Source: a virus
Taxonomy: Duplodnaviria; Caudoviricetes
DNA: 64,000 nt
Virus record (IMG/VR): IMGVR_UViG_3300005686_000008
Strand: one strand, 5' to 3'
This document shows positions 1-23,300 of the stretch, piece after piece; within the stretch, counting starts at the first letter, position 1, and every line of letters begins with the position of its first letter. The notes beneath the pieces are model-generated. The model ran no database searches and was not told where the DNA came from. It saw nothing but the letters and a program-made list of their open reading frames with translations. A program made the position numbers and the translations under genes.

Positions 1-25
1 AACTTCCTGAGAGGAAAGAACAAGC

Positions 26-508
26 ATGGAAAGCAACGTCACAACTTATTCTCGGGAAAGTTTCATCAAGTTGCTGAGCGACCCCAGCAAGGTTGACGCT
101 TTCATGGCTTTGTTCAACTCTGCCGCCCTCATCGTTGGCGACTTCGATGACTATGGCGAGGTTTTGCAGAGCAACGAAGCAGGCATGTACGACGAAACAA
201 CCAACATTGAAAAGCTGCGCGGAGCTATCAACCTCATTAGCCCCGGCATGGTTCCCGAGGGGGATTATCTTCCCCATTTGACAGAGCAGCAGCAGAAGCG
301 GCTCGAAGAGGTTGCGGCTGAGGTTGTTGCGATTGGCGATGGTGTGGAAACCAAGCCTATAGAAGATGCTGCTTCTGAGGTTGAAACCATGACCCCGAGG
401 GAACGGCTCGAAGCCACGGGCTATTGGGCAAGTACCGAGGACCGTCAAAGGAGCTTGCGGAAGCGGTTAGGATTCGACCCTGAAAATGGGGAAGAGTTCA
501 AGGACTAA
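26..508 (+). CDS. hypothetical protein (putative early gene)
   Basis: 160-aa ORF with upstream GAGG; its stop is the TAA of motif A. Confidence 0.8.
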   Translation: MESNVTTYSRESFIKLLSDPSKVDAFMALFNSAALIVGDFDDYGEVLQSNEAGMYDETTNIEKLRGAINLISPGMVPEGDYLPHLTEQQQKRLEEVAAEVVAIGDGVETKPIEDAASEVETMTPRERLEATGYWASTEDRQRSLRKRLGFDPENGEEFKD

Positions 509-545
509 ACTTTCTTCTCATCTTTTATAAGCAAGGAGATATTCA

Positions 546-887
546 ATGTCCGAACTCATCAAGCCCCATGTCCTGACCGAAGCCGAAGCTTTGAAGCGCA
601 TCAGAGATGCTATTGATAGCATGGACCTTGATGACCTTGCTTGTCTCGTCAGCGACGTTTGTGACACTGATGGACCTGTCGTTGTTGTCCATGACGGCTG
701 CGAGGCCACGACCGCCGAGGAACTCGGAGCGGACGACACAATTCCCGTTTCTGCTGTCTACGAGAACGGCGAGAATGTCGGCGATTTGGCCGAGGATGGA
801 ACCATCTACGGCGATGATGCGGAGGATGACGCGGACGAGGCCAAGAATCAGTCCGACAAGTCTTTCGGCGGGATGGATGACGACTAA
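546..887 (+). CDS. acidic hypothetical protein
   Basis: AAGGAG RBS; very D/E-rich; stop lies in motif A. Confidence 0.8.
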   Translation: MSELIKPHVLTEAEALKRIRDAIDSMDLDDLACLVSDVCDTDGPVVVVHDGCEATTAEELGADDTIPVSAVYENGENVGDLAEDGTIYGDDAEDDADEAKNQSDKSFGGMDDD

Positions 888-911
888 ACTTTCCTCGCGC
901 AAAGGAATCGC

Positions 912-1262
912 ATGAAGGCTACAAGGTTCAAACTCGAAGGGAAAAGGCATGAGGCCCTTCGGTTCATCAATCGGCAAGAGGGTTTCGAGCTTCTCATGTC
1001 CTGCGAGTGCGTTTTGGTTAATGGGGATTTGCTTGAAGATGGGTTTTATCCCTTCAAGAACGACAGTCAGACTCTTGTTGTTGCGATTCCCGAGCTTGGG
1101 AATAGCAGCAGCAAGGAAAACGAGAACATCCACGAATGGGTGGACAGTTTCGTAGATGGTTTGATGGAAGCGGTCGGGAAGATGAAGGCGGACGAGTTTG
1201 AGGCTGCTTCTTTGGAGGGCATGAAGGGTTACAGTAGGATTGCTCGCTTCCATTGGTATTGA
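912..1262 (+). CDS. hypothetical protein
   Basis: AAGGA RBS just after motif A at 882. Confidence 0.75.
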   Translation: MKATRFKLEGKRHEALRFINRQEGFELLMSCECVLVNGDLLEDGFYPFKNDSQTLVVAIPELGNSSSKENENIHEWVDSFVDGLMEAVGKMKADEFEAASLEGMKGYSRIARFHWY

Positions 1263-1457
1263 CGAACTAGCGCGATCGGATGTCGGACCCTAGACTCCCG
1301 TGCGGCGATACGGCACGAACAAAATGGGGTAGGTGTTGCGGTTGCAGTTGCTTCCCCTTTCAGCCTTAAATGCGGAATCGGCAACGGGACAGAGGAGGGT
1401 TTGCAAGCCCTTCTCTGTTCGTTTAAGACTAAACTTCTTGCGCAAAGGAGTGTTGAT

Positions 1458-1778
1458 GTGCCAAAGTCAAATTCCCAAAAGAGGAAACTACCTCCGCTGA
1501 AAGAGGGAGACCTGGTCATCACTGTTTCTCTTGAGTTCCCTAACCATGAACGAGGCGGAGTTCCTCGCAAGTTTGATTTGGTTTGCGACCCCGAGACAAT
1601 GACCGTTCAGTTGGAAGAGGACTTGGTTGAACTTACTGAACCGTTCGACCCCAACGAAGACCCCGACAGTTCTGCTTTGGAGGTTTGCAAAGCCATCGAA
1701 GACGAAGGCATCTCCATGAAGGGGATGCGCCACCATATTGCTGCACTGCTTACGGCGGTCATTGAAGCGACTCCGTAA
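1458..1778 (+). CDS. hypothetical protein
   Basis: Probable GTG start at 1458 after AAGGAG; flanked by motif A at 1427 and 1779. Confidence 0.65.
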   Translation: MPKSNSQKRKLPPLKEGDLVITVSLEFPNHERGGVPRKFDLVCDPETMTVQLEEDLVELTEPFDPNEDPDSSALEVCKAIEDEGISMKGMRHHIAALLTAVIEATP

Positions 1779-1808
1779 GACTAAACTTCCAGAGAAAGGA
1801 ACACTGTT

Positions 1809-2150
1809 ATGGCAAAGAAGAAAGCAAAGAAGAAAGCGAAGAAGGTTGTTGCTGACCCCAAGTTCCAGGTTTGGGCGTACTACAGCCATCCGCAAGGGAT
1901 TGACTGGGACAAGGATGACGAGATCCGTAAGGCCGCCGGCAAGGAGGACTTCGGTTCTGGTTTCGGTATGCACGGCGGGCTGCGCGACCTTTCTTTCTTC
2001 GCGCAAAACATGGCTCATGCGCTGCGCATGAAGGACCGCATCCTCAAGCTTCGCTGCGTCGTTCGCGTCGAGGTATCCGAGGACGAGAAGGGCGGCAATA
2101 CGGTCTTTACCAAGAAGAACAAGAAGGGGAAGTGGCAAAGCTACGGTTGA
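1809..2150 (+). CDS. hypothetical protein, Lys-rich N-terminus
   Basis: AAGGA RBS after motif A; starts MAKKKAKKKAKK. Confidence 0.8.
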   Translation: MAKKKAKKKAKKVVADPKFQVWAYYSHPQGIDWDKDDEIRKAAGKEDFGSGFGMHGGLRDLSFFAQNMAHALRMKDRILKLRCVVRVEVSEDEKGGNTVFTKKNKKGKWQSYG

Positions 2151-2354
2151 ATGGGTAAAGTAGGGGAAACCCTCTCTGGCTAAACTTTGACCATTGAGCC
2201 AAAGGATGTTCAGAACTCAAGAACCACTCTAAGGAGCGAGTCAAGTGAGCAAGAAGACCCCTATCAAAGGCAAAAAAGTTGGGAAGACGGTGACTTTCCA
2301 AGCCAAGCCGAAGGTTGACCCCTTGACTAAACTTCCTGCGCAAAAGAAGAAGAT

Positions 2355-2496
2355 GCCGACATAGTTTATCCTGGTTAGAACAGCAATGTTTGACTCAAGT
2401 AGGAGCTAGCGCAGTTCTGAAAAGTAGTCAAACCGAGCCTTGGCGCAAAGGCGGGAAAATTGAAAGAAGGAGGTTCGATCCCTCCTGTCGGCACCA
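2355..2496 (+). ncRNA. tRNA-like RNA with a 71-nt structured insert replacing the anticodon loop
   Basis: Acceptor stem GCCGACA/TGTCGGC followed by A-CCA; D-arm GTTT...GAAC; T-arm GGAGG-TTCGATC-CCTCC; anticodon stem CAAT/ATTG encloses 2388-2458; followed by a terminator. Confidence 0.8.
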
Positions 2497-2504
2497 CCGA
2501 TAAC

Positions 2505-2530
2505 AACCCCCGAAATGGGGGTTTTCTTTT
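2505..2530 (+). terminator. intrinsic terminator
   Basis: AACCCCC-GAAAT-GGGGGTT followed by a T-tract. Confidence 0.8.
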
Positions 2531-2826
2531 GCGATCATCCGTCTAATCGTTATGAGTGAAGAAGATCTACACAACCGCCAAGATCACCTCGTAGATCACC
2601 TCGCACATTTGGCACACAATGACCCACATTCTTAAGCTAACAAGCCACGCGATGTCCGGAGCTGCCACGCGATGTCCGGATGCCCAGGGCAAAAAGCCCA
2701 GGACTCGGAGGAGCCTCTCTTCAGTTCTGAGGCGGAGCCGCTCCGAACTGAGAGTTCCGTTAGGATTTTGGTATCTACAGTACGAGACTCCTCGCTGGCT
2801 AAACTTTCTTTGGAGCAGTTTTGGGT

Positions 2827-3075
2827 ATGAGCGTACAAAGACATTGTTCAATCTACCTCGCCAAGAACGGCAAATGGTACATGGAGCTTGGCGACCAAGA
2901 ATATGACCGCCAAGACGATTCAACGACGTATGGACCCTTTGCCTCAAAGGAGAGGGTCTATGATGAGCTGAGGTTCCATGCGAACCCCGGCGGAAGTTTC
3001 CAAGACGACAGCGGAACTCGTGAAGTTCCTACCGTTTCTCCCAATGGCAGGCCAATCCAAAAACCAAGAGGATAA
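2827..3075 (+). CDS. hypothetical protein
   Basis: ORF downstream of motif A at 2797 with GGAG RBS. Confidence 0.7.
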   Translation: MSVQRHCSIYLAKNGKWYMELGDQEYDRQDDSTTYGPFASKERVYDELRFHANPGGSFQDDSGTREVPTVSPNGRPIQKPRG

Positions 3076-3076
3076 C

Positions 3077-3292
3077 ATGAGCAACAAAAACTGGAACAAC
3101 AGTCACATTCAGTTCGCCCGCCTCATCGCTGAGATTGAAGCGAACGGAGGCTTTACGAACAGTTTGATGGACGACCTTTGCTCCTCGATGGACTTGGAGA
3201 GGATGGACGTTTGCGGCCTCATCAATCGGGCGCAGAGCGAGTGGGACGAAATCAAGGCTCAGATTCCCAAGACGATTCCCAAGAAGAAGTGA
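3077..3292 (+). CDS. hypothetical protein
   Basis: GAGGA RBS; ATG immediately after the previous stop. Confidence 0.7.
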   Translation: MSNKNWNNSHIQFARLIAEIEANGGFTNSLMDDLCSSMDLERMDVCGLINRAQSEWDEIKAQIPKTIPKKK

Positions 3293-3442
3293 ACCGTCCT
3301 CGAAAGATGACGACTAAACTTATCTGATGGCTCTACTACAGAGCAAGGTTTACTTGTCGTTATTGTTCCAAAGGAGGTGCCTTATGTAACCCTAACTATG
3401 GTTTGTTTGCAGGACTAAACTTCCTGAGAAAGATTTAGAGAC

Positions 3443-3709
3443 ATGGAAAACTTCTTGTTTGGTTTCGAGCTTGAGACAGTTAGCCCCTTCGATAAGAGGC
3501 ACTTGTCTTCTGTTCTTAATCAAAGAGGAATCAAGACCGTCGTTTCCGAGGATCTTCATTACAGAGAAAAGAACGCTTACCTGGTTGATGGGTCATACTC
3601 GCTTGTCGATGATGGCAGCATCAAGCCTGATGGGTTAAAGTTTGGTGTTGAGTTTAGGAGTTGCATCTTTGCGCTCCACTGTCTCGACATGCACAAGCCT
3701 CTGGTTTGA
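3443..3709 (+). pseudogene. truncated amidoligase-like N-terminal fragment
   Basis: FGFELET and SLVDDGSI...GVEFRS resemble the phage amidoligase N-terminus, but the ORF ends at 88 aa. Confidence 0.5.
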
Positions 3710-3890
3710 TCGCCACAACCAAGAGACCGGCGTTCTTATGACGAAGGAAACGAAAAACCCTTGGGCTGAGATGGACAAGGGGCGCGAAAAGAAAAGCTAC
3801 GCCTTCCTGGCGGAACGGTTGGACGGGTACTTGAAGGCCCCGTGACTAAACTTCCGTCGCAGAACAAGAAAGCAACAAGGAGTATCAACC

Positions 3891-4127
3891 ATGATTGATT
3901 TCATCGCTCACAACTGGCATTGGTTCGGTTTCACGACCTTCGGAATTCTCATTCTCTGCGTCATCAACTTCATCGTAGCGGCTCGCTACTCGATGAGAAT
4001 GGACCGCCAGGTCTTCGTCTACTCCATCGGTGTCCACCTGTTCCTCGGCCTTCTGTTCCTTCTCTCGGCGATTCCTTTCTCCATCGGCGCAATCATCGCC
4101 ATCATCAAGTACGTTCAGGCTCAGTAA
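3891..4127 (+). CDS. small membrane protein (2 TM)
   Basis: AAGGAG RBS; two hydrophobic segments. Confidence 0.75.
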   Translation: MIDFIAHNWHWFGFTTFGILILCVINFIVAARYSMRMDRQVFVYSIGVHLFLGLLFLLSAIPFSIGAIIAIIKYVQAQ

Positions 4128-4167
4128 CACTGCGCAGGACTAAACTTTCAGCGCAAAGAGAACTGAC

Positions 4168-4374
4168 ATGAGCAAGGGCATACGAATCAAGAGCGAGAAC
4201 TTCTCGGCAATCTCTGATGCCCTTGAAAAGTCAGGAATTGATTGGTCGGTTTGGAACGCAGAGGCCATGATGGACCCTAACTACAGCGGTCCCATCGACC
4301 TTGAGTGTCACGACAATCATCGTTTCGGAGAATTTTCTCGCATCGTCCGTAGTGTCGAAAAAAGGAGTCAGTAA
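4168..4374 (+). CDS. hypothetical protein
   Basis: Follows motif A at 4138; stop overlaps the next start. Confidence 0.7.
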   Translation: MSKGIRIKSENFSAISDALEKSGIDWSVWNAEAMMDPNYSGPIDLECHDNHRFGEFSRIVRSVEKRSQ

Positions 4375-4637
4375 TGGACCGCATTTTCGCAGGTATCGCC
4401 ATTGGCATCGCCGGTTTCTTCGCTATCATCGCCCTCGCCTTCTGTATCGCTCTCCTCGCTGCCATCCCGCTGTATTTCCTCTGGAACGCCTTCGCTCCGA
4501 CGTACTTCCCGTTCCTCCCCGCGCCCTGGCTCGCCATCCCCTTCTGGCACGTTGTCTGTCTGACATGGCTGCTCAGTATCGTCCGCGGCATCATCATGCC
4601 GAGCGCAGTCGCAAACGCAACGGCCAAGAACGACTAA
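4374..4637 (+). CDS. small membrane protein
   Basis: AAGGAG RBS; hydrophobic; ends in a motif A variant. Confidence 0.75.
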   Translation: MDRIFAGIAIGIAGFFAIIALAFCIALLAAIPLYFLWNAFAPTYFPFLPAPWLAIPFWHVVCLTWLLSIVRGIIMPSAVANATAKND

Positions 4638-4722
4638 ACCTCGTCGTCATGTCCTTGAGCGAGGCCCTGAGCAATCGGGGCCTTTCTCTTGTGACTAAAC
4701 TTTTCGCGCAAAGGAAAGTTGT

Positions 4723-5019
4723 ATGGCAACTGAACTGAAAATCGACAGAGAGAAAGCCAAGTCCGTTTACAGCGGCAAGGATGGCGCATGCTGCTGCGGT
4801 TGCAGCGGAACCCATTACTACGCCTCCAAGCACCGCGAAGAGGCCGGGAAGAGTCGTGGTTACAATGTTGAGGACAAGGAAATCAACGACAAGCAAGTAA
4901 CTCGCATCATCAACAAGATCGAGAAACTCGCAGCGGCAGGCGTCCAGATCGATACTGTTCCCGATGTCTACTTCTCCGCTGTTGAGGGCAAGCGGCTTTA
5001 CATTGTTTATTACAACTAA
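4723..5019 (+). CDS. hypothetical protein with CCCGC motif
   Basis: VYSGKDGACCCGCSG; motif A on both sides. Confidence 0.8.
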   Translation: MATELKIDREKAKSVYSGKDGACCCGCSGTHYYASKHREEAGKSRGYNVEDKEINDKQVTRIINKIEKLAAAGVQIDTVPDVYFSAVEGKRLYIVYYN

Positions 5020-5043
5020 ACTTTCCAATCAGAAGGGAAAGAC

Positions 5044-5442
5044 ATGAAGAACGTAAGATTCCTTACAAGGGATGAGATTCTCGAAACCGATGGCGGACGA
5101 GAAGGAACTCTGAGCGAGAACTACGCCACCGTTCGCAAGGCGGTCGAGAAACTCCCCGGATTTGACCAGGGCTTCTTCATCAATCCCAAGAGCGGCGGCG
5201 AAGATGCCGACTTCCCCGATGATGATGAGAAGGTCGATGTTACCTTCGGTCTGAAAGATGAGGAAACGGGCGAGGTTCTCATTGTTTGGAACTATAAGAG
5301 CGGTCCCGCTTACAACCCCAGAGATAACCTGACACTGGATGACATTTCCGAGTTCTCCATCGGATATGGAGGCGATAAAAAGAAACCGTCCACTGCGCTG
5401 CTCTCCGCTCTGATGGAGGCTTGCGATATCGCCAAGCATTGA
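5044..5442 (+). CDS. hypothetical protein
   Basis: ORF between motif A copies at 5014 and 5444. Confidence 0.75.
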   Translation: MKNVRFLTRDEILETDGGREGTLSENYATVRKAVEKLPGFDQGFFINPKSGGEDADFPDDDEKVDVTFGLKDEETGEVLIVWNYKSGPAYNPRDNLTLDDISEFSIGYGGDKKKPSTALLSALMEACDIAKH

Positions 5443-5473
5443 GGACTAAACTTCCTGCGCCCGTTTGTAAGGT

Positions 5474-5683
5474 ATGAACGTCAACGATACCATCCACCGC
5501 CGCTGCCAAGATTGCGGAGAAACCTTTGAGGTTATCGACCCCGATTGCAAGGCGGAGGTTCGCTGCATTTCTTGTCAGGTGCAGTTCCGTATCACCGGCA
5601 AGACGGCTCTTGAGCGGTACGCCGAGGCTCTCGCCGAATCAATGAGCCAAGCCCTCCCCGCAAAGGAGAAGGTGTCATGCTGA
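5474..5683 (+). CDS. small zinc-ribbon protein
   Basis: CQDC...CISC. Confidence 0.7.
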   Translation: MNVNDTIHRRCQDCGETFEVIDPDCKAEVRCISCQVQFRITGKTALERYAEALAESMSQALPAKEKVSC

Positions 5684-6114
5684 TTTCAGCCATCGAAGTT
5701 CAAGAGGCAAGGCAACGGCTCATCGCCAAGTACGGACAAGCCTATGGCCTACGGCGCGGCTGGTTGCCTCCAGAAGAAGCCGAGAAGCTGAAGGTCAAAC
5801 TGAAGGTCACTCGCAAGGAGGGCGTTCTGGGGCAGTTCTGTCAGCTCTGGCAAGGCAACGTGTTGGTGGTCGAGTCTTACATCTTCCCGACCCCAAGAGG
5901 AGAGTTCAAGAACGTAAGGGAGTTCATCGAGGCGAAGAAGAAGGAGTGGGAGATTGTCAACCTTCCCACCGAGAACGACCCTCGGTATTACGTTCGCTTG
6001 CTCGCTGTTTATCAGTCAATAGGAACGATGTCGATGGGTTGTGTTGTCGAGGGAGGCAAGAGCGTCGATTGCTACACCGTTGACGATTTGATTGCGGTTG
6101 GCTTTGCCGACTAA
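5677..6114 (+). CDS. hypothetical protein
   Basis: AAGG RBS; stop lies in motif A. Confidence 0.75.
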   Translation: MLISAIEVQEARQRLIAKYGQAYGLRRGWLPPEEAEKLKVKLKVTRKEGVLGQFCQLWQGNVLVVESYIFPTPRGEFKNVREFIEAKKKEWEIVNLPTENDPRYYVRLLAVYQSIGTMSMGCVVEGGKSVDCYTVDDLIAVGFAD

Positions 6115-6138
6115 ACTTCCTGCGCAAGGAAAGTAGCT

Positions 6139-6618
6139 ATGAACAATAGCAAACACCGCCAGACTCTCAGCAAGGCAGCTCTCATCGGTCGGCTCAACGG
6201 CATCATCGCCCGCATGGACCGTAACCGCGATGCTTACTTGTGTTCCCACAAGAAGACAAGGGACGCTGACACTGGAAAGCTCCCCGCCGAACTGCTCGCC
6301 ACTGATTTCGCAGCGGCCCAGGCTGAGCTTGAGGCGTTGCACCGCGAGGTCAACACTGATATGGTCGAGGGGTCAACTCTCGAAGGGCAGTACGATAAGA
6401 GCCTTGTGGAGACAACCATCGCGACGGTCTTGGGCAAGGTTCAGCAGCAGTTTGGGCATCAGCCGAACATCCTCGCTACCCTTCAGATGTTCGCGATGCT
6501 CCTTCAGTCCGAACTGTGCCTCAACGCTCATTTCCTCTTTCTCAAGACGGACGCCAATGTGGAGGACCGCATCAACCATCCGAACCTCTACGGTCTTGAC
6601 GGAAACCCCAAGCGTTGA
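6139..6618 (+). CDS. hypothetical protein
   Basis: AAGGA RBS; motif A on both sides. Confidence 0.75.
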   Translation: MNNSKHRQTLSKAALIGRLNGIIARMDRNRDAYLCSHKKTRDADTGKLPAELLATDFAAAQAELEALHREVNTDMVEGSTLEGQYDKSLVETTIATVLGKVQQQFGHQPNILATLQMFAMLLQSELCLNAHFLFLKTDANVEDRINHPNLYGLDGNPKR

Positions 6619-6649
6619 CTAAACTTTCAGCGCAAGGTAGAATGGTATG

Positions 6650-6840
6650 AGGTAATGCGGGTCTAACCCCGCTAGAGGATGCGTCCTCTATAGTATAAGC
6701 CGAAAGGCCAGAGAAATACCGCCTCTAGGGATTGGAACCCCTCTAAGAAATCCCCTCGTCGGTAGGTAGCCGAACAGCCGAACCCGAGCGGCAATCGGGA
6801 GTGTATCGCGCCGACCCTAAACAAGTCGGCTTATTTCTTT
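6650..6840 (+). ncRNA. candidate multi-hairpin structured RNA
   Basis: At least 6 consecutive hairpins and a 9-bp long-range pair (6695-6703 with 6826-6834); no credible ORF; follows motif A at 6617. Confidence 0.5.
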
Positions 6841-7156
6841 AATCCCTCTTGTTTCCGTTTGCGGAAACTCGCCGAGTTTAGGAAACTCACCCATAACCAT
6901 TACCAGACGCCAACATAATCGTTATGAGTGAAATAGTGTTCCAACGGGTTTCAGTGTCCGGATCCCGGATCCGGGTGACCAGTCTCAGGTCAACCGGGTG
7001 TCCGGGTGTCGTAGCCAGAAATTTCTGCGCAGAAACAAACTCCGAACAACCCCAACAGACTAAACTTTCCAATAATCCAAACAGACCAAAGCCTCAACAA
7101 TCCCAACAGACTAAACTTTCCTCGCAATTTTGCAGAGTACCCAATAGGAGAAACCC

Positions 7157-7912
7157 ATGAAACTCATCAGCCGCAAAGAACTCATCGAACGCCTTTACAA
7201 TCAGACGACTCAGACCATCGTTTCGATGGTTTGCGTTACCGAGCCTGACATGAGGGCGAAGGCAATCATCGAAGCCGTCGATATCGCCGTCCCCCAACCG
7301 AACCCCTACCGCATCGGCAAGGGCAAGGCAGCGGTTTCGACCATCAGCAAGGTCTTAAAGGTCAACGGCAAGATTAACGACCGCTACGAGCGCGTCGTTA
7401 CCAACAAGGCCAAGCGCATGATTATCGCCGAGCGCGAGGCCGCGAACCTTGCTCCGCTCTCGCCCGAGCAACTCGATGCAGCAGCGGCGGCGGTCCCCGA
7501 CTTTGGGGAATCTTGGCATACGCCGATTCTCGATGCCGAGGGCAAGCCGACTTGTCTCAGCGTCAACCGCAAGACGCCCGAGAACGGCAAGGTTTATATT
7601 CGGTTCATCTTCAAGGCGAAGGGCGAAGCCGAATACGTCAACAACGACAACGGCGCAACCGAACCGAGCGAGAACGTCTACCCATTCCTCTCTCCCTCAT
7701 CCGACTACAGCAATCAGAATCTCGCCGAGGGCGATGAAGTCCGTTTCGTCGTCTATGACGTTGCCAATATCGCCGAAATCGCGCTTGGCGGCGAACGGCT
7801 CCGCATCCTCGATACCCTCGCCGAACAGTCCGAGGGCATGAGGAATAAGGTTTGGGCAATCGCCGAGGAATACTTGGAGGGCGAACGGAGCATGAGCAAG
7901 GTCGGCAACTAA
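7157..7912 (+). CDS. hypothetical protein
   Basis: 251 aa; AGGAG RBS. Confidence 0.85.
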   Translation: MKLISRKELIERLYNQTTQTIVSMVCVTEPDMRAKAIIEAVDIAVPQPNPYRIGKGKAAVSTISKVLKVNGKINDRYERVVTNKAKRMIIAEREAANLAPLSPEQLDAAAAAVPDFGESWHTPILDAEGKPTCLSVNRKTPENGKVYIRFIFKAKGEAEYVNNDNGATEPSENVYPFLSPSSDYSNQNLAEGDEVRFVVYDVANIAEIALGGERLRILDTLAEQSEGMRNKVWAIAEEYLEGERSMSKVGN

Positions 7913-8100
7913 CGCCGGCTAAACTTTCCCCAACCCTCAACCCCAATCGTTTGTCTCCATTGGGGACCGAACGCCAGCCTTACAAGGTTGGCGTTTGGTC
8001 ATTGCAAACACTGAATCATTATGAGTGAAATAGAACAGCCGAGCAAACATTAGCCGACTAAACTTTCAGCGCAGAATTGAGAAGTAACGAAAGGAACCCC

Positions 8101-8514
8101 ATGAACAGCCGCAACCATAACGATGACAGCCTTAACGGTCATGGCTTTTTCGAGCATGACATTCCTTTTGGACAGCCCGAACTCCAGCCCGACAAGGCTA
8201 CGGCGGTCATCGTCAAGGACAGGCCGAAGGACGAAACGAAGGGGCAGCGTCCGCATGTCGTTCTCGTTTGGAATGACCAAGAACATTCGGAATTGTTCGT
8301 CATCGGCGTTCTCATGGAAGTCTGCAAGATGAATTTGCAGCAAGCCATCCAAACGACCATGAAGATTCATGCCGAAGGCAAGGCGGCGGTCATCGGCGGA
8401 TTGTTGGAGTATTGCGAGTTAAAGAGGGACCAGATTGCAACCTTCCGCGATGCCCTTGTCATCTCGATGGGAGGCCCCAACGTCCCCCTCAACGTTACGG
8501 TCGCGGAGGCATGA
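8101..8514 (+). CDS. clpS: ClpS-like ATP-dependent Clp protease adaptor
   Basis: PHVVLVWNDQEHSELFVIGVL...TMKIHAEGKAAV...CELKRDQI matches the ClpS core. Confidence 0.8.
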   Translation: MNSRNHNDDSLNGHGFFEHDIPFGQPELQPDKATAVIVKDRPKDETKGQRPHVVLVWNDQEHSELFVIGVLMEVCKMNLQQAIQTTMKIHAEGKAAVIGGLLEYCELKRDQIATFRDALVISMGGPNVPLNVTVAEA

Positions 8515-8676
8515 GGCGCAGCGGACTAAACTTCCGCTAGAAGGTACTTTCATGGGCGGGGTATTGAAGCGGCTCTCGGCGAGGCCGCTCTACCCCTTTA
8601 AGCCAACCGAATCGTTATGAGTGTAACGCCATCGCCGACCCCTCCAAACTAAACTTCCGTCAGCAAAGTTATAATC

Positions 8677-8892
8677 ATGGCAGCAGAACCAATCAACACG
8701 AAGCAGCCAGGCGATTGCGGATACGTCTTTTTCTTCCGCGGCAAGGAAATCGCCCTCTACGCTCCGAGCTTGGCAGCGGCAAAGGACAAGGCCGTGACGC
8801 ATTTCAAGGCCCCCAAGAGCCAACGGCATATGGTTCATGGAGGTATCGCAGAGGACAAGGACGGCAAGGAAATCGTCCATACAGCAGACTAA
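8677..8892 (+). CDS. hypothetical protein
   Basis: Between motif A copies; stop lies in the motif. Confidence 0.7.
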   Translation: MAAEPINTKQPGDCGYVFFFRGKEIALYAPSLAAAKDKAVTHFKAPKSQRHMVHGGIAEDKDGKEIVHTAD

Positions 8893-9002
8893 ACTTCTAA
8901 CTTTGTAATTCTCCGCGCATGGTTGTTTGTCTCGCCGACTAAACTTTCAGCGCAGAATTGCAGAGAGTTAGAACAGCCCAAACCCAATGAAAGGACAGAC
9001 AA

Positions 9003-9518
9003 ATGGCAAAGCTCGCTCTCCTCAACCTCGCCGCCTTCGAACTCGCCCGCCGTCGCATCGCCGAACGGAACATTACCCTTCCGAACGATGAACAGATCAT
9101 GGCTGGCAACTACAGCGTTCGCGTTTTCAACAGCCCCCGGCACAGCGATATCTACGTCATGCAACTTCTCTCCACCTTGTTCCGTACCCAACCGAACAAG
9201 GCGGCGGAAATCGCCCTCAAGATCCACGACAGCGGCGATGAGGGAGTTACAATCTTCACCGGCAGCCGCGATAACTGCCGCAACCTCATGCGGGCGTTGG
9301 CGGCTTGGGGCGGCGATGCCGCCGCAAACCTCGCCCTCCGCATCGACAATGACAAGGGACTGTACGCCGAAATGACCGACAACCGCAGCGGCGAAATCGT
9401 ACAGCGCAGCGGCGATGAGGATGAAGGGGCCGACGATGCCGCTCCCCAACTCGCCCCCGCCGTCGCTCCGCCCGTTCGCCCGCTCGATGCGGTTTTCGCT
9501 CGGCTTCTCGGCAACTAA
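9003..9518 (+). CDS. divergent ClpS-like protein
   Basis: YSVRVFNSPRHSDIYVMQLLSTLF...AAEIALKIHDSG...TIFTG resembles the ClpS fold. Confidence 0.6.
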   Translation: MAKLALLNLAAFELARRRIAERNITLPNDEQIMAGNYSVRVFNSPRHSDIYVMQLLSTLFRTQPNKAAEIALKIHDSGDEGVTIFTGSRDNCRNLMRALAAWGGDAAANLALRIDNDKGLYAEMTDNRSGEIVQRSGDEDEGADDAAPQLAPAVAPPVRPLDAVFARLLGN

Positions 9519-9551
9519 ACTTTCCTCGCCAAAGGAAAGTAGTAAAGGACA

Positions 9552-9639
9552 GGCAAGGGACTCTGCCTCCGAGACTCGTTCTCGGAGGGGCGTTCAGAGG
9601 ACAGCGGACGGGAAGTAACGCGCCCGAGCCGCACTTGCC
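9552..9639 (+). ncRNA. candidate structured RNA (multi-stem junction)
   Basis: Closing stem GGCAAG/CTTGCC; inner stems CTCTG/CAGAG, CCTCCGAG/CTCGGAGG and GCGG/CCGC. Confidence 0.4.
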
Positions 9640-9710
9640 ATTTAAGCCAATCTAATCGTTATGAGTGAAAGCCGCATCCGAACTAAACTTCGCGCAAGAA
9701 AGTTATAAGC

Positions 9711-9920
9711 ATGGGACTCGGAAAGAAAATCGACGGCAAGTATCAACCCATCAGTAATTACGAAGGCTCATGGGCCGACGTAATGAAGAAGGCAAGAGAA
9801 AGAACTCGCCGCGAAGCCGAGAAGGACAAGAGGCCCTCATCCTTGCTCGCCTACGAAGGAGTCCATACCCTCTCCAACGGCGTCAAGGTTGAGTTTACAA
9901 ATACCAACCGCATCGACTAA
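9711..9920 (+). CDS. hypothetical protein
   Basis: Between motif A copies; stop lies in the motif. Confidence 0.7.
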   Translation: MGLGKKIDGKYQPISNYEGSWADVMKKARERTRREAEKDKRPSSLLAYEGVHTLSNGVKVEFTNTNRID

Positions 9921-9944
9921 ACTTCTAGGGGAAGGATTAGAAAC

Positions 9945-10262
9945 ATGGTAGACTACAATGCTCCATTGTTTCAGCATCCCCAAGAGACTTGGGACAAGGC
10001 GAAATGCGAGAAACTCGCCAAGTATCGCCATGTCGATGCTTTCGGAACCAAGCAAAGCCGCAAGGGGTTTCTAGGCTCGGGCGCAGCCATCCCCGCAAGG
10101 TTCGGCATAACTCGTTACAACGGAGGATGCGAGCGTAATGGCGAATGGTGGCAAGGCGAGAATTTTCCCTTCCCCATCCTTGCCGAAGGGTTTGAGATTG
10201 TTTACGTTCTGACTTGGGGATGGTACATTCAACGTAAGGCAGGCAGCCATGAACGTCAATGA
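9945..10262 (+). CDS. hypothetical protein
   Basis: AAGGA RBS after motif A. Confidence 0.7.
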   Translation: MVDYNAPLFQHPQETWDKAKCEKLAKYRHVDAFGTKQSRKGFLGSGAAIPARFGITRYNGGCERNGEWWQGENFPFPILAEGFEIVYVLTWGWYIQRKAGSHERQ

Positions 10263-10440
10263 TGGAATTTTCTACCTCTACTCCGACGATGAGAAGGGGT
10301 TTTGGAACAACGAGAGCGGCTGGGGTTCGCTCGAAACGGCGCAAGAGTATTTGGAGGAGGACTTGCATGGGTACATCCCTAAAGGTTCTCGGTTCGTTTC
10401 CGCAAGCGAAGCCGAAACCCTTTGCGATGACCCAAACTAA
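10249..10440 (+). CDS. hypothetical protein
   Basis: Overlaps the previous gene; stop lies in motif A. Confidence 0.65.
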   Translation: MNVNDGIFYLYSDDEKGFWNNESGWGSLETAQEYLEEDLHGYIPKGSRFVSASEAETLCDDPN

Positions 10441-10481
10441 ACTTTCGCGCAGGTACTTCTAGGTAGAAAGGACTCTATCCC

Positions 10482-10721
10482 ATGAAGGTTGAAATCCGTC
10501 ATCTCAAGACCCTCAGCCAGCCCAACGGCGAACTCATCGAAATCGTTGAAGTTAACGCCCAAACCATGAACGCCGAACAAATCCAAACAAAGGTTGGTTC
10601 GGCCCTCATCAGCAAGGGCATCGAACTGTTCGGCTCCGAATTCCAATCGGTCGGCAACAACTCCATCTTCGGCGGTTACGTTCGTAACAAGGCCAACGGC
10701 GAATGTATCATCGCCGTTTGA
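10482..10721 (+). CDS. hypothetical protein
   Basis: AAGGA RBS. Confidence 0.7.
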   Translation: MKVEIRHLKTLSQPNGELIEIVEVNAQTMNAEQIQTKVGSALISKGIELFGSEFQSVGNNSIFGGYVRNKANGECIIAV

Positions 10722-10858
10722 GGAGAAACTAAACTTCCGTCGCGGAAGTTAAGAGTATGAAATACAACTCTACTTTCTGCGGCTCGCAAACTCCCCCAAC
10801 TTGGCGTTGGGGGAATCTTTTTGCGCCAGGCTAAACTTCCTGAAAAGAAATGAGAAGC

Positions 10859-11071
10859 ATGGCAACTCAAACAGTCAAATCTCGTTCAAGCAAGCCCCGT
10901 TCAAGCAAGCGGACCCATCTCAACATCAATGTTTCTCTCGAAGTCGATGATGTTGTCAGAGTCGCCGGCTGGCATAAAGCCAACCACATGCTCAACCGCG
11001 TTCTCGCCTTCGCTGCAAACAACAAGGGACGCATCAGCCTCAAGGTAACAAAGCCCACGACGAAGGGCTAA
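10859..11071 (+). CDS. basic hypothetical protein
   Basis: After motif A at 10829; start at 10850 or 10859. Confidence 0.6.
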   Translation: MATQTVKSRSSKPRSSKRTHLNINVSLEVDDVVRVAGWHKANHMLNRVLAFAANNKGRISLKVTKPTTKG

Positions 11072-11180
11072 CAACGGAGCATGGTACGGGTAAAGGGCGA
11101 GCAGCCTAACCCAGCCCGCAAGGGTATGGGTTCCGTACCGATTTAATGAGGACTAAACTTTCCTTCCAACAATCAAGAGC

Positions 11181-11372
11181 ATGTTGAACTGGAACATTGA
11201 CAAGATGAGAGGGGCAGATAAGAACAGCGTTGAGGTTCAGCTCTTCAATGCAGAGAACGCTCTCTCAAACTGGCGCGAGGATGTAGCGAAAGGGTATTGC
11301 CGTTATGATGCTGGCGAGGAGAGGAAACTCAAGGCGAAGATTAAGGAACTGAGGACTAAACTTCCCGGCTAG
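11181..11372 (+). CDS. hypothetical protein
   Basis: After motif A at 11151; last gene of the array. Confidence 0.65.
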   Translation: MLNWNIDKMRGADKNSVEVQLFNAENALSNWREDVAKGYCRYDAGEERKLKAKIKELRTKLPG

Positions 11373-11569
11373 AACCCCCTCCGTTGGGGCGCAGTGGAAG
11401 GGATGCTCTCTCACTCATAATGATTAACATCACAGAGGCACCCCATACCCCTCGCCCGCCCCTTCAGGAAAAGTAAGATATCTATATTTCAAAGGAGTAC
11501 CCTAGAGTATACTCAGTTACAGAAAGAAGGTATCCTCAAAATGTCGATATTATTTTAGGAGGATACCGC

Positions 11570-12004
11570 ATGCCATATAAAAGTGTAGAAAAAAGAACTG
11601 AATGGAAAAGAGAATGGGCAAAGAAAAATAAAGACAAAATACAAGAATATGCCAAGCGATATTATGATAAGAAAAAGAACAGCCTACCAAAGTCTGTAAG
11701 AATAAAGAAGACAAAAGAAGAGATAAAAGAAACAGATACGGTTGCAAGAAAAAGAAGAATACAAAGAAATAGAGAATATATCAATTCTATAAAACAAGGA
11801 AACAAGTGTTTGAAATGCGGAGAATCTCATATTTCATGTTTAGTTTTTCATCATAGAGATAGAAGAGAAAAAGAATATACGATTAGCGATATGGATAACA
11901 TGAGTCTTGAAACAATAAAGAAAGAAATAGAGAAATGCGATATGCTTTGTCATAATTGTCATGCTAAACTACATTATGAAGAAAGAGGGTACGCCGTCAC
12001 TTAA
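11570..12004 (+). CDS. HNH endonuclease (homing-type)
   Basis: CLKCGE...LVFHH...EIEKCDMLCHNCHAKLH; AGGAGG RBS. Confidence 0.85.
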   Translation: MPYKSVEKRTEWKREWAKKNKDKIQEYAKRYYDKKKNSLPKSVRIKKTKEEIKETDTVARKRRIQRNREYINSIKQGNKCLKCGESHISCLVFHHRDRREKEYTISDMDNMSLETIKKEIEKCDMLCHNCHAKLHYEERGYAVT

Positions 12005-12541
12005 AATTCGCAATATGGGGGATACCTTATCTCGTTCACAGCAAAGAGGTATTTTTTTGATATTGACGAATTGGTAATAGAAGACTTGCAGGAGAATGAA
12101 ATGAAAAGGATAGAAAGTAAAAACTACGCAAAATCAAAGACGGCTCAAGTAAATCAAGAAGATATAAGAAGCCGTGTTTTTGATTTTGCTAAAAAGATGT
12201 TTCATCTTGCTAAAAACGCAAGAGTGATTATTAGCATGAACGAGGTAGGAAACTTATTCGTAGGCGAATATGGATGGACAGATGAAGGCAAGAGGATACA
12301 CGATATGTCAGTAAGGGTTCTCTCCAATCCAAGGTCTTCTATTCAAGAACTTTTTGAAATCATAGAAAGCATTATAAATCTAGCAGGCGATAAAGAAGTT
12401 GCGGACGGAACCCCTCCCGGAAGAGGCCAACCTCGTGTTATTGGTCCAGAGTTGATTACTGAATATAGAAACCTAAAAGCAGAAGCCAATTTCTAAAATT
12501 AGGTATACGTCACTTAAAATTCGCGCACAGAGGGATACCTT
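11995..12541 (+). repeat. 34-bp imperfect direct repeat CGTCACTTAAAATTCGC-N7-GGGATACCTT flanking one gene
   Basis: Copies at 11995-12028 and 12508-12541. Confidence 0.8.
12101..12496 (+). CDS. hypothetical protein (N-terminal KTAQ)
   Basis: GGAGA RBS before ATG at 12101. Confidence 0.75.
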   Translation: MKRIESKNYAKSKTAQVNQEDIRSRVFDFAKKMFHLAKNARVIISMNEVGNLFVGEYGWTDEGKRIHDMSVRVLSNPRSSIQELFEIIESIINLAGDKEVADGTPPGRGQPRVIGPELITEYRNLKAEANF

Positions 12542-12624
12542 GCTTGTTTATTCCTGACCCTAATCAGAAGCCAATATAATAATACAAAGGACTAAACAAT
12601 TATATTGTGGAATCCCACAATATA

Positions 12625-19835: not shown

Positions 19836-20333
19836 ATGTGGTATACTTTAGCCTCAGAAGGAACGGTCACGTTATATCATGGCACAAGTCGTGAGAATTA
19901 TCTTTTAATGAAAATAAGCGGAGTTTTCAAAAGGTCAGGAGTTGCGAATCTAACCACTAATAAAAAGTCAGCTATAGCTTGGGCGAGAGCAATAGCAGGA
20001 GATGACGATCTTGTTGTTTTAACATTTGTTGTACCTGTTGAAATGCTTGATTACAATCTTAATGTTGAAAACGTTCTTGGTCTTACTGATATACCAATGA
20101 AGTTTTGCAAAAAAGTAGAAAAAATACGTCCTGTAGACGAGATAATAGATCCAACAGATGTTATACATGATACAAGGATTAAGAATCTCAAACCAGAAGA
20201 TATGTCTAATCCATCCAACCCTCAGCATGAAAAGCAAATTCAGGACAAGTTGAGTGAATTACGCAGAAATCCTAGTGCATATATCCCTGCATGGATGAAG
20301 AATGATCCGAGATTAAAGGGCTATCTAAGATGA
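19836..20333 (+). CDS. ADP-ribosyltransferase-like protein with WY tag
   Basis: MWYTLAS...VTLYHGTS...NLTTNKKSAIAWA. Confidence 0.55.
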   Translation: MWYTLASEGTVTLYHGTSRENYLLMKISGVFKRSGVANLTTNKKSAIAWARAIAGDDDLVVLTFVVPVEMLDYNLNVENVLGLTDIPMKFCKKVEKIRPVDEIIDPTDVIHDTRIKNLKPEDMSNPSNPQHEKQIQDKLSELRRNPSAYIPAWMKNDPRLKGYLR

Positions 20334-23300
20334 ATTGGTACAAGAAAGCACATCAAATGAAGAAGAAAGCAAACGGGCCATGTCCGCAATGCGGCGGTCC
20401 TATGGTTAAGAGGAAGAACAGTAAAACCGGACAAGAATTTTGGGGTTGTTCTAACTACTCAAAGGGATGCAGGGGAACAAAACCTGTTGAAGCTCCTCGC
20501 CAGCAGCCTCAAGCTCCTCAACCAGCTATAGCTCGCCCTCAACCAATTCAGGCTCCGGTTCCAGCTCCTGCGGATAAAAAACTATGGCTTCTCGCAACCA
20601 TGCTTGATGATGGAACTCCTATTGCTGTTACCAGAGGCGTAAACGGGTGGGAGTATAAGAGAGAAAACGGAGAAGAAGGAACTCTTCCAAACGCTAATAT
20701 TGCTAATCTAATAAAGTCTGTTGAAAAAGACGGCAAGAAAGTAAGCGGAGCAGCGCCTGAAGAAGTGTTTAAAATATTCCACCAAATGAACAATCAGCAA
20801 CCTCAAGAGGTTGAAAAGCCAAAGGAAGAGGGAGTTAAGGGAAGAATACCTGCTGATAGAATGAGTCCTCATCAAAAGGGGATTGAGAATTCATTCCTAA
20901 ATACTCAGCAAAGTGTTATGATAAATGCATTAGCAGGCACGGGTAAGACAACAATGCTTCGCCACTTGGCGACTTTCAAAGACCCTGGAGCAAAATGGCT
21001 CTATCTTGTTTTCAACAAGAAGAATCAACTTGAAGCGTCTGAGGGTAAAGGCAAATTCCCTAATGGAGTTGAAGTAAAAACAAGTCACTCATTCCTTGGA
21101 CAAGTTTTAGGTCGCAGCGCTGATCTCAATGCTATTCAAAAAACAGACTTATGGAATAGAGGCGGAGAAAGAATATCAGTCATTCTAGATAGTATGATGG
21201 AGGGAGATAATACTTTCCCTCAATCTGTTCGTTTTGTTGCAAAGCAGGTTATTAAACAAGTTGCGAGCTGGAGTAAGGGTTTTGCTGTTAATCCGGCGTC
21301 CCTGAATGCAGCAGAACAAGTTGCTGCCATAATCAAGCAATATGGGGTTGACACGGATCTTTCTACAAATAAAGACAATCCGCAACCCGGAAGAGCAATT
21401 GATTATACTCCTCAGATAATTGATAAAGTTTTAGACCTTCTTCATTATTGCTTGCCAGGCAATGCCCCAAGCGCAGAACTCGGAATTATGAGAGACCATG
21501 ATGACACGTTATGGTATTCTGCGATTAACCCAAATATCAAGTGGCCTCGTTATGATGTTGTTTTGGCTGACGAAGTACAAGACTTCAATCGTTGTCAAAC
21601 TTTCATGCTTCAAAAACTTTCAGAAGCAGGAGCGAGAGTTGTTGCGGTAGGAGATCCAAATCAGTGTCAACCTGCGGGAACTATAATATCTTTGACTAAT
21701 GGAATTTCTAAACCAATAGAGAACGTTGTTGCTGGAGATGAAGTAATAACATATAACACAAAGAAAAGTTATTTCCCTGGAACAAAAAATCAAGGAAGGA
21801 AAGTTATACAAGTTGCGTCTAGAGATTTCTATGGTCAACTTATAACAATTAAAACGTCAAAATATGAACACAAATGTACACCAAATCACAGGTGCCTTGT
21901 TAAATTTAATGCTGATAATAAATATGCGCTATATCTAATGATAAAAGGAGATTCGGCAAGAGTTGGCATTGCTAAAGTGAAATATTTTCAATCATTTGGA
22001 CCAGCAATGAGAGCTATATCGGAAGAAGCGGATAGTCTTTGGGTTTTAGATGTTTTTGAAACTCAAGAAAAAGCCAGATTGGAGGAAATGCTTACTTGGT
22101 CTAAATTTGGTTTACCTGGTCTTATATTTAAACATAATGGGCAAAAAACAGGATCACAAGAATTTATTGATAAGTTTTACAATCAACTTGGAAATAATCT
22201 AGAAAAAGCTAAAAAATGCCTTTCTCATTATGGAAGAGATTTTTCTTATCCTCTTTGGACAAAAAAAGAACAGGAAAGATTTGGAACGTTAAAACAGAAT
22301 TATATTGGTAGTAAGAAAAGCTTTGTAACTCAATCTTGTAATCTAATTTCTGGAGCTATGCAAGTTAGAACTTTTGAGGGATCTAATAGGGGAGGAAATT
22401 GGGAAACAATTCAGGTATCAAGAGAAGATTCTAATTGTAAAGTTTATAGTCTCGAAGTTGAACCAACAGAAGATGGGAAAAGATTATATATAGCAAATAA
22501 TATAGTTACTCATAACTCTATTTATATGTTTAGAGGAGCTGATGCTCAGGCTTTCAATTCTGTACAACAAGTTCTTGGTAACGCTCCTAATGGCAATGCC
22601 CCGCATTCTCTTCCTGTCAACTATCGCAGCGGTCGCAAGATTATACAATACGTCAATGAGAATACTCACGTTAAGGATCTTCAAGCCGGCAAGGATTTTG
22701 ACGGAACTGTAACAGAGAATCGTCCTGCTGAAGAAGCTGTTAGCGGCATAGTTACAGAAAAGAATAGAGGCGGCAGGCTTGCAATGCAAACCTCATTTAT
22801 TGCAAGAACAAACGCTCCTCTTGTTAGGACGGCTCTTGATTTAATGTCAAATGATGTAGATTTCGTTATGATAGGAAGAGATTTTTCCAAAGAGCTTACA
22901 GACCATATTGAAAACGTAACTGGCAAAGGAAGAAACGCCAAAGTTATTCCTATTAACAATCTTGACATGGCGCTCATTGATTATGTTTCTAGAATGGAAA
23001 ATGCTTGGAAGGGAAAAATAAGCAAAGAAGGCGAACTCAAGGAAATGAAGATCATTAATGATGCCCTTATGGACGTTATTGAGTTTCTAAAAAGAAACAA
23101 CTTCAGAGACAGAAAACTCAACGTTCAGGTTACAAACAGCACAACATTTATTTCTTACATAAAGCAGAAGTTTTCTGGCGTAAATATTGACGACGCTGCT
23201 GAAGCTCAGAAGTTAAGAGAAAGAGACCCTCTATCTTTTGTAACATTAACTTCTGCTCACAGATCCAAGGGTCTTGAGTTTGATAGAGTTTTCATTCTTG

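Follow-up and report, generated by a model that had tools for sequence, protein, structure and literature searches.

The window analysed here, a 64,000-nt stretch of the virus record IMGVR_UViG_3300005686_000008 (Duplodnaviria; Caudoviricetes), opens with an 11.4-kb array of short genes and small RNA units delimited by one recurring element, RRCTAAACTT, and the question raised by this locus is what the element does. The initial annotation, made from the sequence of the window, had left a choice among a promoter for each gene, an RNA processing site and a recombination joint. On the basis of sequence comparison, we regard it as likely that RRCTAAACTT is the upstream specificity element of a phage-specific promoter class, in which the transcription start would invariably lie at offset 30, counted from the first motif base.

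Distribution of the element and position of the start codons

The window is part of a 370-kb record (G000), estimated to be 73% complete, from an uncultured phage with a genome of ~0.5 Mb; coordinates follow the window orientation, and negative numbers are record positions upstream of window position 1. The element occurs in the window in 32 exact copies between 503 and 11363, all on the plus strand (0.8 expected), and a 33rd copy is truncated by the window start (1..5), in agreement with the approximately 33 same-strand copies in 11.4 kb counted initially. The lack of full copies in the remaining 52 kb was likewise confirmed, with zero RRCTAAACTT copies in 11373-64000 and two plus-strand sites of the bare 8-mer core elsewhere in the window (11964 and 32518). 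The array is not confined to positions 1 to 11372, as had been thought, but extends some 116 kb upstream, with 89 same-strand copies over 127 kb (motif positions -112762 to +11354); the whole record further holds one same-strand copy (+152411) and two reverse copies, so that the motif is not equally common on both strands. Its density is ~1 copy per 5 kb across the first 90 kb of the array (GC content ~41%), where it heads operons of ordinary genes, and 6 to 14 copies per 5 kb in a dense block that begins near -26 kb and ends at +11.4 kb (GC ~50%), while the other 243 kb of the record (GC ~38%) are essentially motif free. The 8-mer core is invariant, one-mismatch variants being at background in the same arm (53 forward versus 61 reverse), and the flanks add little (G at -3, C or A at -2 and two pyrimidines right after the motif).

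About three-quarters of the short genes in the dense block own a motif copy, and the remainder are translationally coupled to the preceding gene; the motif-less open reading frames (ORFs) 4374, 5677 and 10249/10259 overlap the stop of the gene before them. Tandem copies 50 to 87 nt apart occur, and whole units have been duplicated together with motif and leader (8056 and 8937). As first reported, the motif also stands ahead of noncoding units, among them a tRNA-like gene (2355-2493). Nine sites had been listed at which the TAA of the motif provides the stop codon; eight of them hold (508, 887, 5019, 6114, 8892, 9518, 9920 and 10440), whereas 4637 falls in a one-mismatch variant, GACTAAACCT. 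The motif TAA is the stop of 72 of 194 upstream ORFs (37%), close to the ~1 in 3 expected by reading frame in a tightly packed array. Furthermore, the co-varying hairpins described around a CTAAACT loop are at chance level, with a mean stem of 2.62 compared to 2.63 for flanks of different copies paired with each other, and with 7 stems of at least 5 bp against 10.2 expected from the partner shuffle.

The distance between motif and start codon was examined in a pooled set of five non-redundant genomes (G000 and its relatives G001, L017, L018 and L020), where the start was called as the first ATG opening an ORF of at least 45 codons and the offset was counted from the first motif base. The ATG lies exactly at offset 30 in 87 of 197 units, compared to 9 at offset 29 and 6 at offset 31; no starts occur at offsets 34 to 41, and a second cluster of 34 starts is found at 42 to 53. 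The two groups differ in Shine-Dalgarno (SD) pairing, since the anti-SD duplex energy is -2.85 kcal/mol in the 28-31 class (-3.12 for random 18-mers) and -6.45 kcal/mol in the 42-60 class (Mann-Whitney p = 3e-11), and the contrast is seen in each of seven genomes. Thus, the "AAGGA N5-12 ATG" layout that had been described as typical is not the rule, and a role of the motif as partner of a ribosome-binding site was set aside, because SD pairing in genes starting at offset 30 (the +30 class) is no better than in random sequence. On the simplest reading, that of a start at offset 30, any leader needs at least 12 nt to accommodate an SD, and this would account for the lack of starts at 34 to 41.

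The sequence around the +30 starts is itself distinctive. A pyrimidine precedes the ATG in 91 of 94 +30 starts (97%) versus 46% of motif-less genes, and the class shows a purine at -3 (91%), an A at -6 (72%), a T at -8 (38%) and an A-rich stretch from -13 to -10, with two pyrimidines at -20/-19 as a further weak feature downstream of the motif. As an internal control we used the 118 motif copies lacking an ATG at offsets 26 to 34, in which the pyrimidine-purine (Y-R) step peaks at 29/30 (53%, versus ~10 to 25% at most positions), with a lower secondary peak at offset 22 (44%); A occupies offset 30 in 58% of them, and the A-rich and T22 pattern is likewise present. Since the Y-R step and the A-rich pattern persist without an ATG, these features belong to the motif and not to translation. 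The first base of the tRNA-like gene (2355) is offset 30 of the motif at 2325. The absence of an SD together with the initiator signature in the +30 class would match what is expected of leaderless mRNAs. All transcription start sites (TSS) given here, that at offset 30 included, were inferred from sequence statistics, while unit anatomy, the statistics themselves and conservation were read directly.

The same arrangement was found in relatives. G001 (74.5 kb) is syntenic with the region from -72 kb to -0.1 kb of the record at 65 to 75% nucleotide identity and has 41 same-strand copies, often at orthologous genes, with the +30 spacing retained although the intervening bases differ. Further contigs (L series) were found via a conserved 251-amino-acid (aa) protein of the array: forward copies number 54 in L017, 41 in L018 and 15 in L019, with none in reverse. 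L020, L021 and L034 carry CTAGACTT throughout (35, 27 and 18 copies) at the same +30 spacing, and in L033, L032 and L035 variation is confined to the two bases preceding the core. A one-base switch across a whole motif set points to a co-evolving reader. L020 and L021 are the same sequence, as are L018 and L019, and these pairs are uninformative for breakpoint mapping. No cultured relative was present in the phage collection searched, and no paper linking the motif word to a phage was found in the literature.

Terminator-like hairpins with a T run end no more than 25 nt before the motif at 9 of 89 copies in G000 (1.35 expected) and at 4 of 41 copies in G001 (0.55 expected). Transcription must therefore restart there, and between such a terminator and the next gene the motif is the sole conserved element. 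In addition, a back-to-back divergent pair of motifs 44 nt apart occurs at -52392/-52336, with the ATG of the minus-strand gene at offset 31. Among the options initially proposed, one promoter per gene is thus favored by the ownership of a copy by about three-quarters of the genes, by the terminators before some copies and by the divergent pair; the mRNAs, however, would be mostly leaderless and not SD led, different from what had been suggested.

Other promoter types seem to coexist with the motif. TTGACA-N17-TAGAGT lies 7 nt ahead of the ATG of a leader peptide at approximately -18260, a candidate leaderless start, and GGACGATA boxes 7 nt ahead of ATGs in the right arm may represent further leaderless starts. 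Near-consensus sigma-70 promoters were considered as a separate immediate-early class and discarded, their numbers (7 forward versus 5 reverse) being at chance level.

Geometry of the putative promoter and comparison with known systems

Relative to the predicted start, the motif would occupy positions -30 to -21 (the invariant 8-mer -28 to -21), followed by weak features, namely, YY at -20/-19, an A-rich stretch from -13 to -10, an A at -6, a purine at -3 and a pyrimidine(-1)/A(+1) initiator. Such a promoter would have neither a -35 box nor a TANNNT -10 hexamer. As stated in the initial annotation, no conserved -35 element is present, the region from -40 to -4 ahead of the motif nowhere exceeding 0.2 bit of information, and TANNNT starts at offsets 15 to 19 in just 9 of 94 +30 units. 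The resemblance of TAAACT to a -10 hexamer, noted at first, does not hold up, because the start would then fall at approximately offset 15, contradicted by the spacing and SD data, while the whole element maps to -30 to -21 of the predicted start. The +1 A would at the same time be the A of the ATG in roughly half of the units, giving a leaderless mRNA; in the others, the start codon would lie at least 12 nt downstream behind a strong SD, or the product would be a tRNA-like or small structured RNA. The reader could be a factor, encoded by the phage or brought in with the virion, that works through the multisubunit RNA polymerase of the host, either a sigma adaptor or an unorthodox sigma with a geometry like that of the PafBC "-26 element", or, alternatively, an undetected RNA polymerase, and the genes so driven may form an early or host-takeover class.

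Known sigma factors do not account for the motif. Reading it as the -35 box of an extracytoplasmic function (ECF) sigma or of sigma-28 fails on geometry. For a sigma-28 (FliA) promoter (TAAA box, ~15-nt spacer and GCCGATAA-type -10), CTAAA is present, but there is no CGA box at the needed distance, and the start would be placed inside the ORF. A sigma-54 promoter would need GG at -24 and GC at -12, positions that hold A, and no RpoN or AAA+ activator (Sigma54_DBD and Sigma54_activat) was matched in the record. A leader hairpin hiding the SD was also rejected, showing a weak stability excess only (-2.9 versus -1.9 kcal/mol).

At T4 middle promoters, a MotA box centred at -30 acts with AsiA in sigma appropriation. 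The likeness consists in a phage-specific box that replaces the -35 and redirects the host polymerase to a class of phage genes; T4, however, needs a good sigma-70 -10 located 11 to 13 bp downstream, its box is degenerate, and its mRNAs have leaders. The PafBC-dependent sigma-adaptation promoters of mycobacteria combine a -26 element with a -10 (PMC8635444), and sigma appropriation at T4 middle promoters is cited in PMC5312081 and PMC8635444. With the PafBC promoters, the phage motif shares a specific element at about -23 to -28 in place of the -35 box and the lack of a -35 consensus, but PafBC promoters keep a canonical -10 hexamer, of which the phage units are devoid, and the phage element is 10 nt long, invariant, phage borne and present in more than 100 copies. 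Thus, of the traits of sigma adaptation or appropriation, an element at about -26 to -30 instead of the -35 is found relative to the predicted start, while retention of a canonical -10 is not.

Single-element, near-invariant phage promoters are exemplified by T4 late promoters (TATAAATA, read by gp55) and by those of the T7 type. The promoters of the AR9/phiKZ virion polymerases (AAATATATATTAT-N6-G+1) end 0 to 6 nt from the start (PMC5312081). All of these resemble the motif in concentrating the information in one short, mismatch-intolerant block, with lineage variants and many copies on one strand. They differ in that their elements end 0 to 7 nt from the start, whereas the motif ends 20 nt away; it does not form a block contiguous with the start (-17 to +6) as in the T7 type, nor was the phiKZ/AR9 combination of split beta/beta' genes with an element 0 to 6 nt from the start found. 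The 370-kb record yielded neither a matching polymerase nor a gp55-like sigma. Giant eukaryotic viruses provide another parallel with their early motifs, one promoter per gene (AAAATTGA in mimivirus; an early core at -28 to -13 in poxviruses). As with these and with archaeal TATA-Inr promoters, an 8- to 10-nt motif precedes nearly every short, presumably early gene, centred at about -26 and combined with a Y-R initiator and predicted leaderless transcripts; here, however, the virus is bacterial, with sigma factors, ClpS, SD sites and intrinsic terminators, and we know of no TBP/TFB-type factor in phages. Finally, the T4 PeSL (promoter/stem-loop) cassettes are likewise promoter-bearing repeats that separate small early genes where gene flux is high, but they contain a stem-loop, which the motif lacks, and their promoter type is different.

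Evidence against the proposed promoter and competing explanations

Several observations weigh against a start at offset 30. Some +30 units in G000 carry a well-placed AAAGGA (e.g., 882, 4693 and 6109), and in unit 1427 a GTG at offset 31 is preceded by a strong SD; such sites in +30 units fit read-through translation, but also a start further upstream. The strongest argument for a nearer start or for processing is that a tRNA-Leu(taa) conserved in G000 and G001 begins at motif offset 10/11 in each of them, its acceptor stem showing a compensatory change; in G000 the motif that abuts it lies at about -17632. Were transcription to begin at offset 30, this tRNA would be cut short; it may instead be transcribed from the upstream promoter. 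Moreover, no recognizing protein emerged: the 16 large ORFs searched with Pfam and PHROGs returned helicases, ribonucleotide reductase, a giant DUF3383 protein and fibre-like domains, and no phage RNA polymerase, neither the virion type that the initial annotation had proposed to look for nor any other. The T7-type family PF00940 (RNA_pol) had no match in the record, which is incomplete, although the control also matched nothing, and PF00562 (Rpb2_6) of multisubunit polymerases had none, although very divergent subunits might escape. An NADFDGD-like motif occurs in no large ORF, the sole DFDGD match being in a 221-aa ORF, and the Atlas look-up of a 1008-aa ORF gave no lead. The record contains two sigma genes, one FliA-like (48358-49188, in the motif-free arm) and one encoding a divergent sigma of 302 aa; the latter was rejected as the reader because its gene is missing from the corresponding site in G001, a syntenic genome that retains the motif. 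No WYL/HTH adaptor candidate was identified in the 73% complete record, and the similarity of the 251-aa core protein to small barrels, WYL domains among them, stays below noise (Z 5.3).

A phage or host endoribonuclease that binds the motif in a polycistron and cuts ~20 nt downstream (Y|A), freeing leaderless mRNAs and small RNAs, is an unlikely but not trivial competitor of the promoter. Most copies have no terminator ahead, so that motif-containing read-through RNA must exist; strand specificity and fixed distance would suit a measuring nuclease, and the motif abuts tRNA ends, following four tRNAs at a distance of 3 to 7 nt and immediately preceding tRNA-Leu(taa). On the other hand, copies right after terminators need re-initiation, and in the divergent pair two promoters, each upstream of its own motif, would have to fit into 44 nt. 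The A-rich stretch from -13 to -3 with the Y-R step is what an initiating multisubunit polymerase needs, and, to our knowledge, no nuclease recognizes a linear 10-nt site and cleaves at a distance of 20 nt. The processing site envisaged initially receives no specific support.

It is quite unlikely, in our opinion, that the motif is a promoter whose transcripts start at or just after it (offset 9 to 17, TAAACT as -10 included), with leaders of 13 to 20 nt translated without an SD. This would accommodate the tRNA-Leu(taa) at offset 10/11 in two genomes, the frequent G/A at offsets 15 to 17 in G000 and the AAAGGA of some leaders, and AR9 is a known case of short promoters that extend up to the transcription start (AACA-N6-TA/G, PMC5312081). 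It does not account, however, for a spacing of precisely +30, for the gap at 34-41, for the SD dichotomy, for the pyrimidine at -1 in 97% of +30 starts or for the Y-R peak at 29/30 in ATG-less copies, and the GCGC/AAAGGA pattern of G000 is not conserved in L017, L018 or L020.

The possibility that the motif is primarily a recombination joint, the crossover point of an integron-like or PeSL-like shuffling of cassettes, appears very improbable. Units do turn over and shuffle: most array ORFs are lineage specific, without homologues in relatives, the core genes are collinear in G000, L017 and L018 but ordered differently in L020, and whole units were duplicated with motif and leader (8056/8937, and the tandems). 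However, no hairpin, inverted repeat or attC-like structure accompanies the motif, the pairing of its flanks being that of shuffled partners; 10 bp offers little length for homologous exchange, operons of ordinary genes over 90 kb begin with the motif as well, its position is tied to the downstream start and not to unit ends, and any promoter-plus-gene unit would resemble a cassette. Breakpoints between lineages are not resolvable to the motif at 55 to 75% identity.

A translational enhancer modeled on the T7 gene 10 epsilon sequence, in which the transcribed motif would pair with rRNA or be bound by S1 and so set the ribosome on an AUG 20 nt downstream, would agree with the fixed ATG distance and weak SD of the +30 class but is hardly credible, given that the motif also precedes the tRNA-like gene and noncoding units, that the Y-R step at 29/30 persists without an ATG, that the SD-led genes at 42 to 53 do not keep the distance and that the terminator-motif pairs would be left to explain.

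Units of the array, neighboring features and implications

Read with the promoter model, the 33 units of the window comprise 15 predicted leaderless genes, 6 genes with SD leaders of 13 to 36 nt and 12 units that are noncoding, tandem or unclear (Table 1).

Table 1. Motif copies and boundary of the array in the window, with the predicted start and content of each unit
Feature	Position	Strand	Predicted start and unit
Motif, cut (3' end)	1..5	+	predicted TSS 26 = ATG of ORF 26-508, leaderless
Motif	503..512	+	predicted TSS ~533; ORF 546-887, 13-nt leader with AAGGAG
Motif	882..891	+	predicted TSS 912 = ATG of ORF 912-1262, leaderless
Motif	1427..1436	+	terminator-like hairpin ahead; ambiguous start, GTG 1458, ORF to 1778, SD upstream of offset 30
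Motif	1779..1788	+	predicted TSS 1809 = ATG of ORF 1809-2150, leaderless
Motif	2178..2187	+	147-nt unit, no long ORF
Motif	2325..2334	+	offset 30 (2355) = first base of tRNA-like gene
tRNA-like gene	2355-2493	+	followed by terminator 2505-2523
Motif	2797..2806	+	predicted TSS 2827 = ATG of ORF 2827-3075, leaderless
Motif	3312..3321	+	noncoding unit, 101 nt
Motif	3413..3422	+	predicted TSS 3443 = ATG of ORF 3443-3709, leaderless
Motif	3844..3853	+	predicted TSS ~3874; ORF 3891-4127, 17-nt leader with AAGGAG
Motif	4138..4147	+	predicted TSS 4168 = ATG of ORF 4168-4374, leaderless; ORF 4374-4637 coupled, motif-less
Motif	4693..4702	+	2 nt past T-rich tail of hairpin 4661-4684; predicted TSS 4723 = ATG, ORF 4723-5019
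Motif	5014..5023	+	predicted TSS 5044 = ATG of ORF 5044-5442, leaderless
Motif	5444..5453	+	predicted TSS 5474 = ATG of ORF 5474-5683, leaderless; ORF 5677-6114 coupled
Motif	6109..6118	+	predicted TSS 6139 = ATG of ORF 6139-6618, leaderless
Motif	6617..6626	+	structured noncoding unit ~270 nt (6647-6918), then 16-nt box 6919
Motif	7058..7067	+	first of tandem pair, 51 nt apart
Motif	7109..7118	+	predicted TSS ~7139; ORF 7157-7912 (251 aa, conserved core gene), 18-nt leader with TAGGAG
Motif	7917..7926	+	~70-nt noncoding unit, hairpin co-varying in L017/L018; box 8016
Motif	8056..8065	+	predicted TSS ~8086; ClpS-like ORF 8101-8514, 15-nt leader
Motif	8524..8533	+	~58-nt noncoding unit; box 8612
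Motif	8647..8656	+	predicted TSS 8677 = ATG of ORF 8677-8892, leaderless
Motif	8887..8896	+	first of tandem pair, 50 nt apart
Motif	8937..8946	+	predicted TSS ~8967; second ClpS-like ORF 9003-9518, 36-nt leader
Motif	9513..9522	+	~113-nt noncoding unit; box 9656
Motif	9681..9690	+	predicted TSS 9711 = ATG of ORF 9711-9920, leaderless
Motif	9915..9924	+	predicted TSS 9945 = ATG of ORF 9945-10262, leaderless; next ORF coupled
Motif	10435..10444	+	predicted TSS ~10465; ORF 10482-10721, 17-nt leader with AAAGGA
Motif	10727..10736	+	offset-30 ATG opens 25 codons only; then terminator-like hairpin 10792-10814
Motif	10829..10838	+	8 nt past T-rich tail of hairpin 10792-10814; predicted TSS 10859 = in-frame ATG, ORF end 11071
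Motif	11151..11160	+	predicted TSS 11181 = ATG of ORF 11181-11372, leaderless
Motif, last of array	11354..11363	+	noncoding unit containing reverse box (~11408-11423)
Right boundary of array	11372..11520		reverse box, conserved CCCCATACCCCTC, then GC drop from ~50% to 38%

The tRNA-like gene has a 62- to 67-nt insertion in its anticodon loop and scores 38.8 bits with the Rfam tRNA model; it is missed by plain ARAGORN, is read as Pro-tgg with an intron by ARAGORN -i and is followed by a strong terminator. The structured noncoding units 6647-6918, 7947-8015, 8554-8611 and 9543-9655 fold at about -0.3 to -0.49 kcal/mol per nt and match no Rfam family, and the hairpin of unit 7947 keeps its pairing through different stem sequences in L017 and L018. 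A 16-nt box, tAATCgTTATGAGTGAa, occurs on the plus strand at 2547..2563, 6919, 8016, 8612 and 9656, each time after a noncoding unit, with a reverse copy at the boundary and another copy at -25224. It usually lies 10 to 20 nt past a terminator-like hairpin and 23 to 60 nt before the next motif, and 22 copies were counted in G000, L017 and L018 (1 of them reverse, in G000).

The two ClpS-like genes belong to tandem-duplicated units, identical over the first 14 nt that follow the motif, and ClpS-like genes recur in all related arrays. They are the only array proteins with a Pfam family, which fits a host-takeover set. The 251-aa protein is encoded by the most conserved gene of the array, with 14 homologues at 42 to 99% identity, which always adjoin ClpS-like genes; its AlphaFold model is confident (predicted local distance difference test, pLDDT, 87) and has no convincing PDB match, the best (Z 6.1) being to small Sm-like barrels.

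Downstream of the tRNA-Leu(taa), a protein gene without an SD follows 2 to 5 nt after the tRNA 3' end at approximately -17540 in G000 and at 54175 in G001 (reverse-complement), a "tRNA punctuation" layout in which 3' processing of the tRNA would leave a nearly leaderless mRNA. In G001, a long copy of the tRNA (54530-55660, reverse-complement) is apparently split by ~1 kb between its 5' and 3' halves, and the interruption holds ORFs, one of them with an HNH-like Cys/His pattern. Inteins were noticed in the UvrD-like helicase and in the large subunit of ribonucleotide reductase (20330-23902 and 53691-57317), one in each, and the intein of the reductase has a LAGLIDADG domain.

The array end of L017 shows the same order of features as the window boundary, with a GC step from 45 to 35%; since boundary and step recur in this contig from another sample, a chimeric assembly was ruled out as the cause. 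A partial reverse copy of the 16-nt box is found there too. An approximately 35-nt repeat, ACGYCACTTAAAATTCGC ... GGGATACCTT, lies at 11985-12030 and 12500-12545, after the first two genes of the AT-rich arm, and a similar sequence is present just past the array end of L017. The GC content at third codon positions (GC3) is 0.66 in 23 array ORFs (1-11372) versus 0.31 in 8 right-arm ORFs (13889-57317), while that at second positions (GC2) is nearly equal, indicating two compartments of codon usage.

It is possible to hypothesize, rather tentatively, that a clade of ~0.5-Mb phages uses an undescribed form of initiation, in which a phage factor would read an invariant 10-bp element at -30 to -21 without a -10 hexamer and more than 100 transcripts per genome would start at the start codon, with element and factor co-evolving (CTAAACTT versus CTAGACTT) and with the promoter-dense block forming a codon-usage compartment perhaps tuned to host translation before phage tRNAs take over.

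If the promoter model is true, the motif offers a key to gene expression in an uncultured clade of huge phages: the start codons of more than 100 ORFan genes can be assigned by rule (to an ATG at +30, or else to an SD-led start from +42 onwards), some dozen small noncoding RNAs are marked in the window alone, and a motif-driven arm is set apart from a motif-free arm containing the FliA-like sigma. A portable 30-bp unit giving leaderless mRNA would also be a possible orthogonal expression part. Moreover, an invariant block 20 nt from the start without a -10 hexamer would imply an undescribed recognition factor, and finding this reader would add a new route by which bacterial RNA polymerase can be redirected or replaced.

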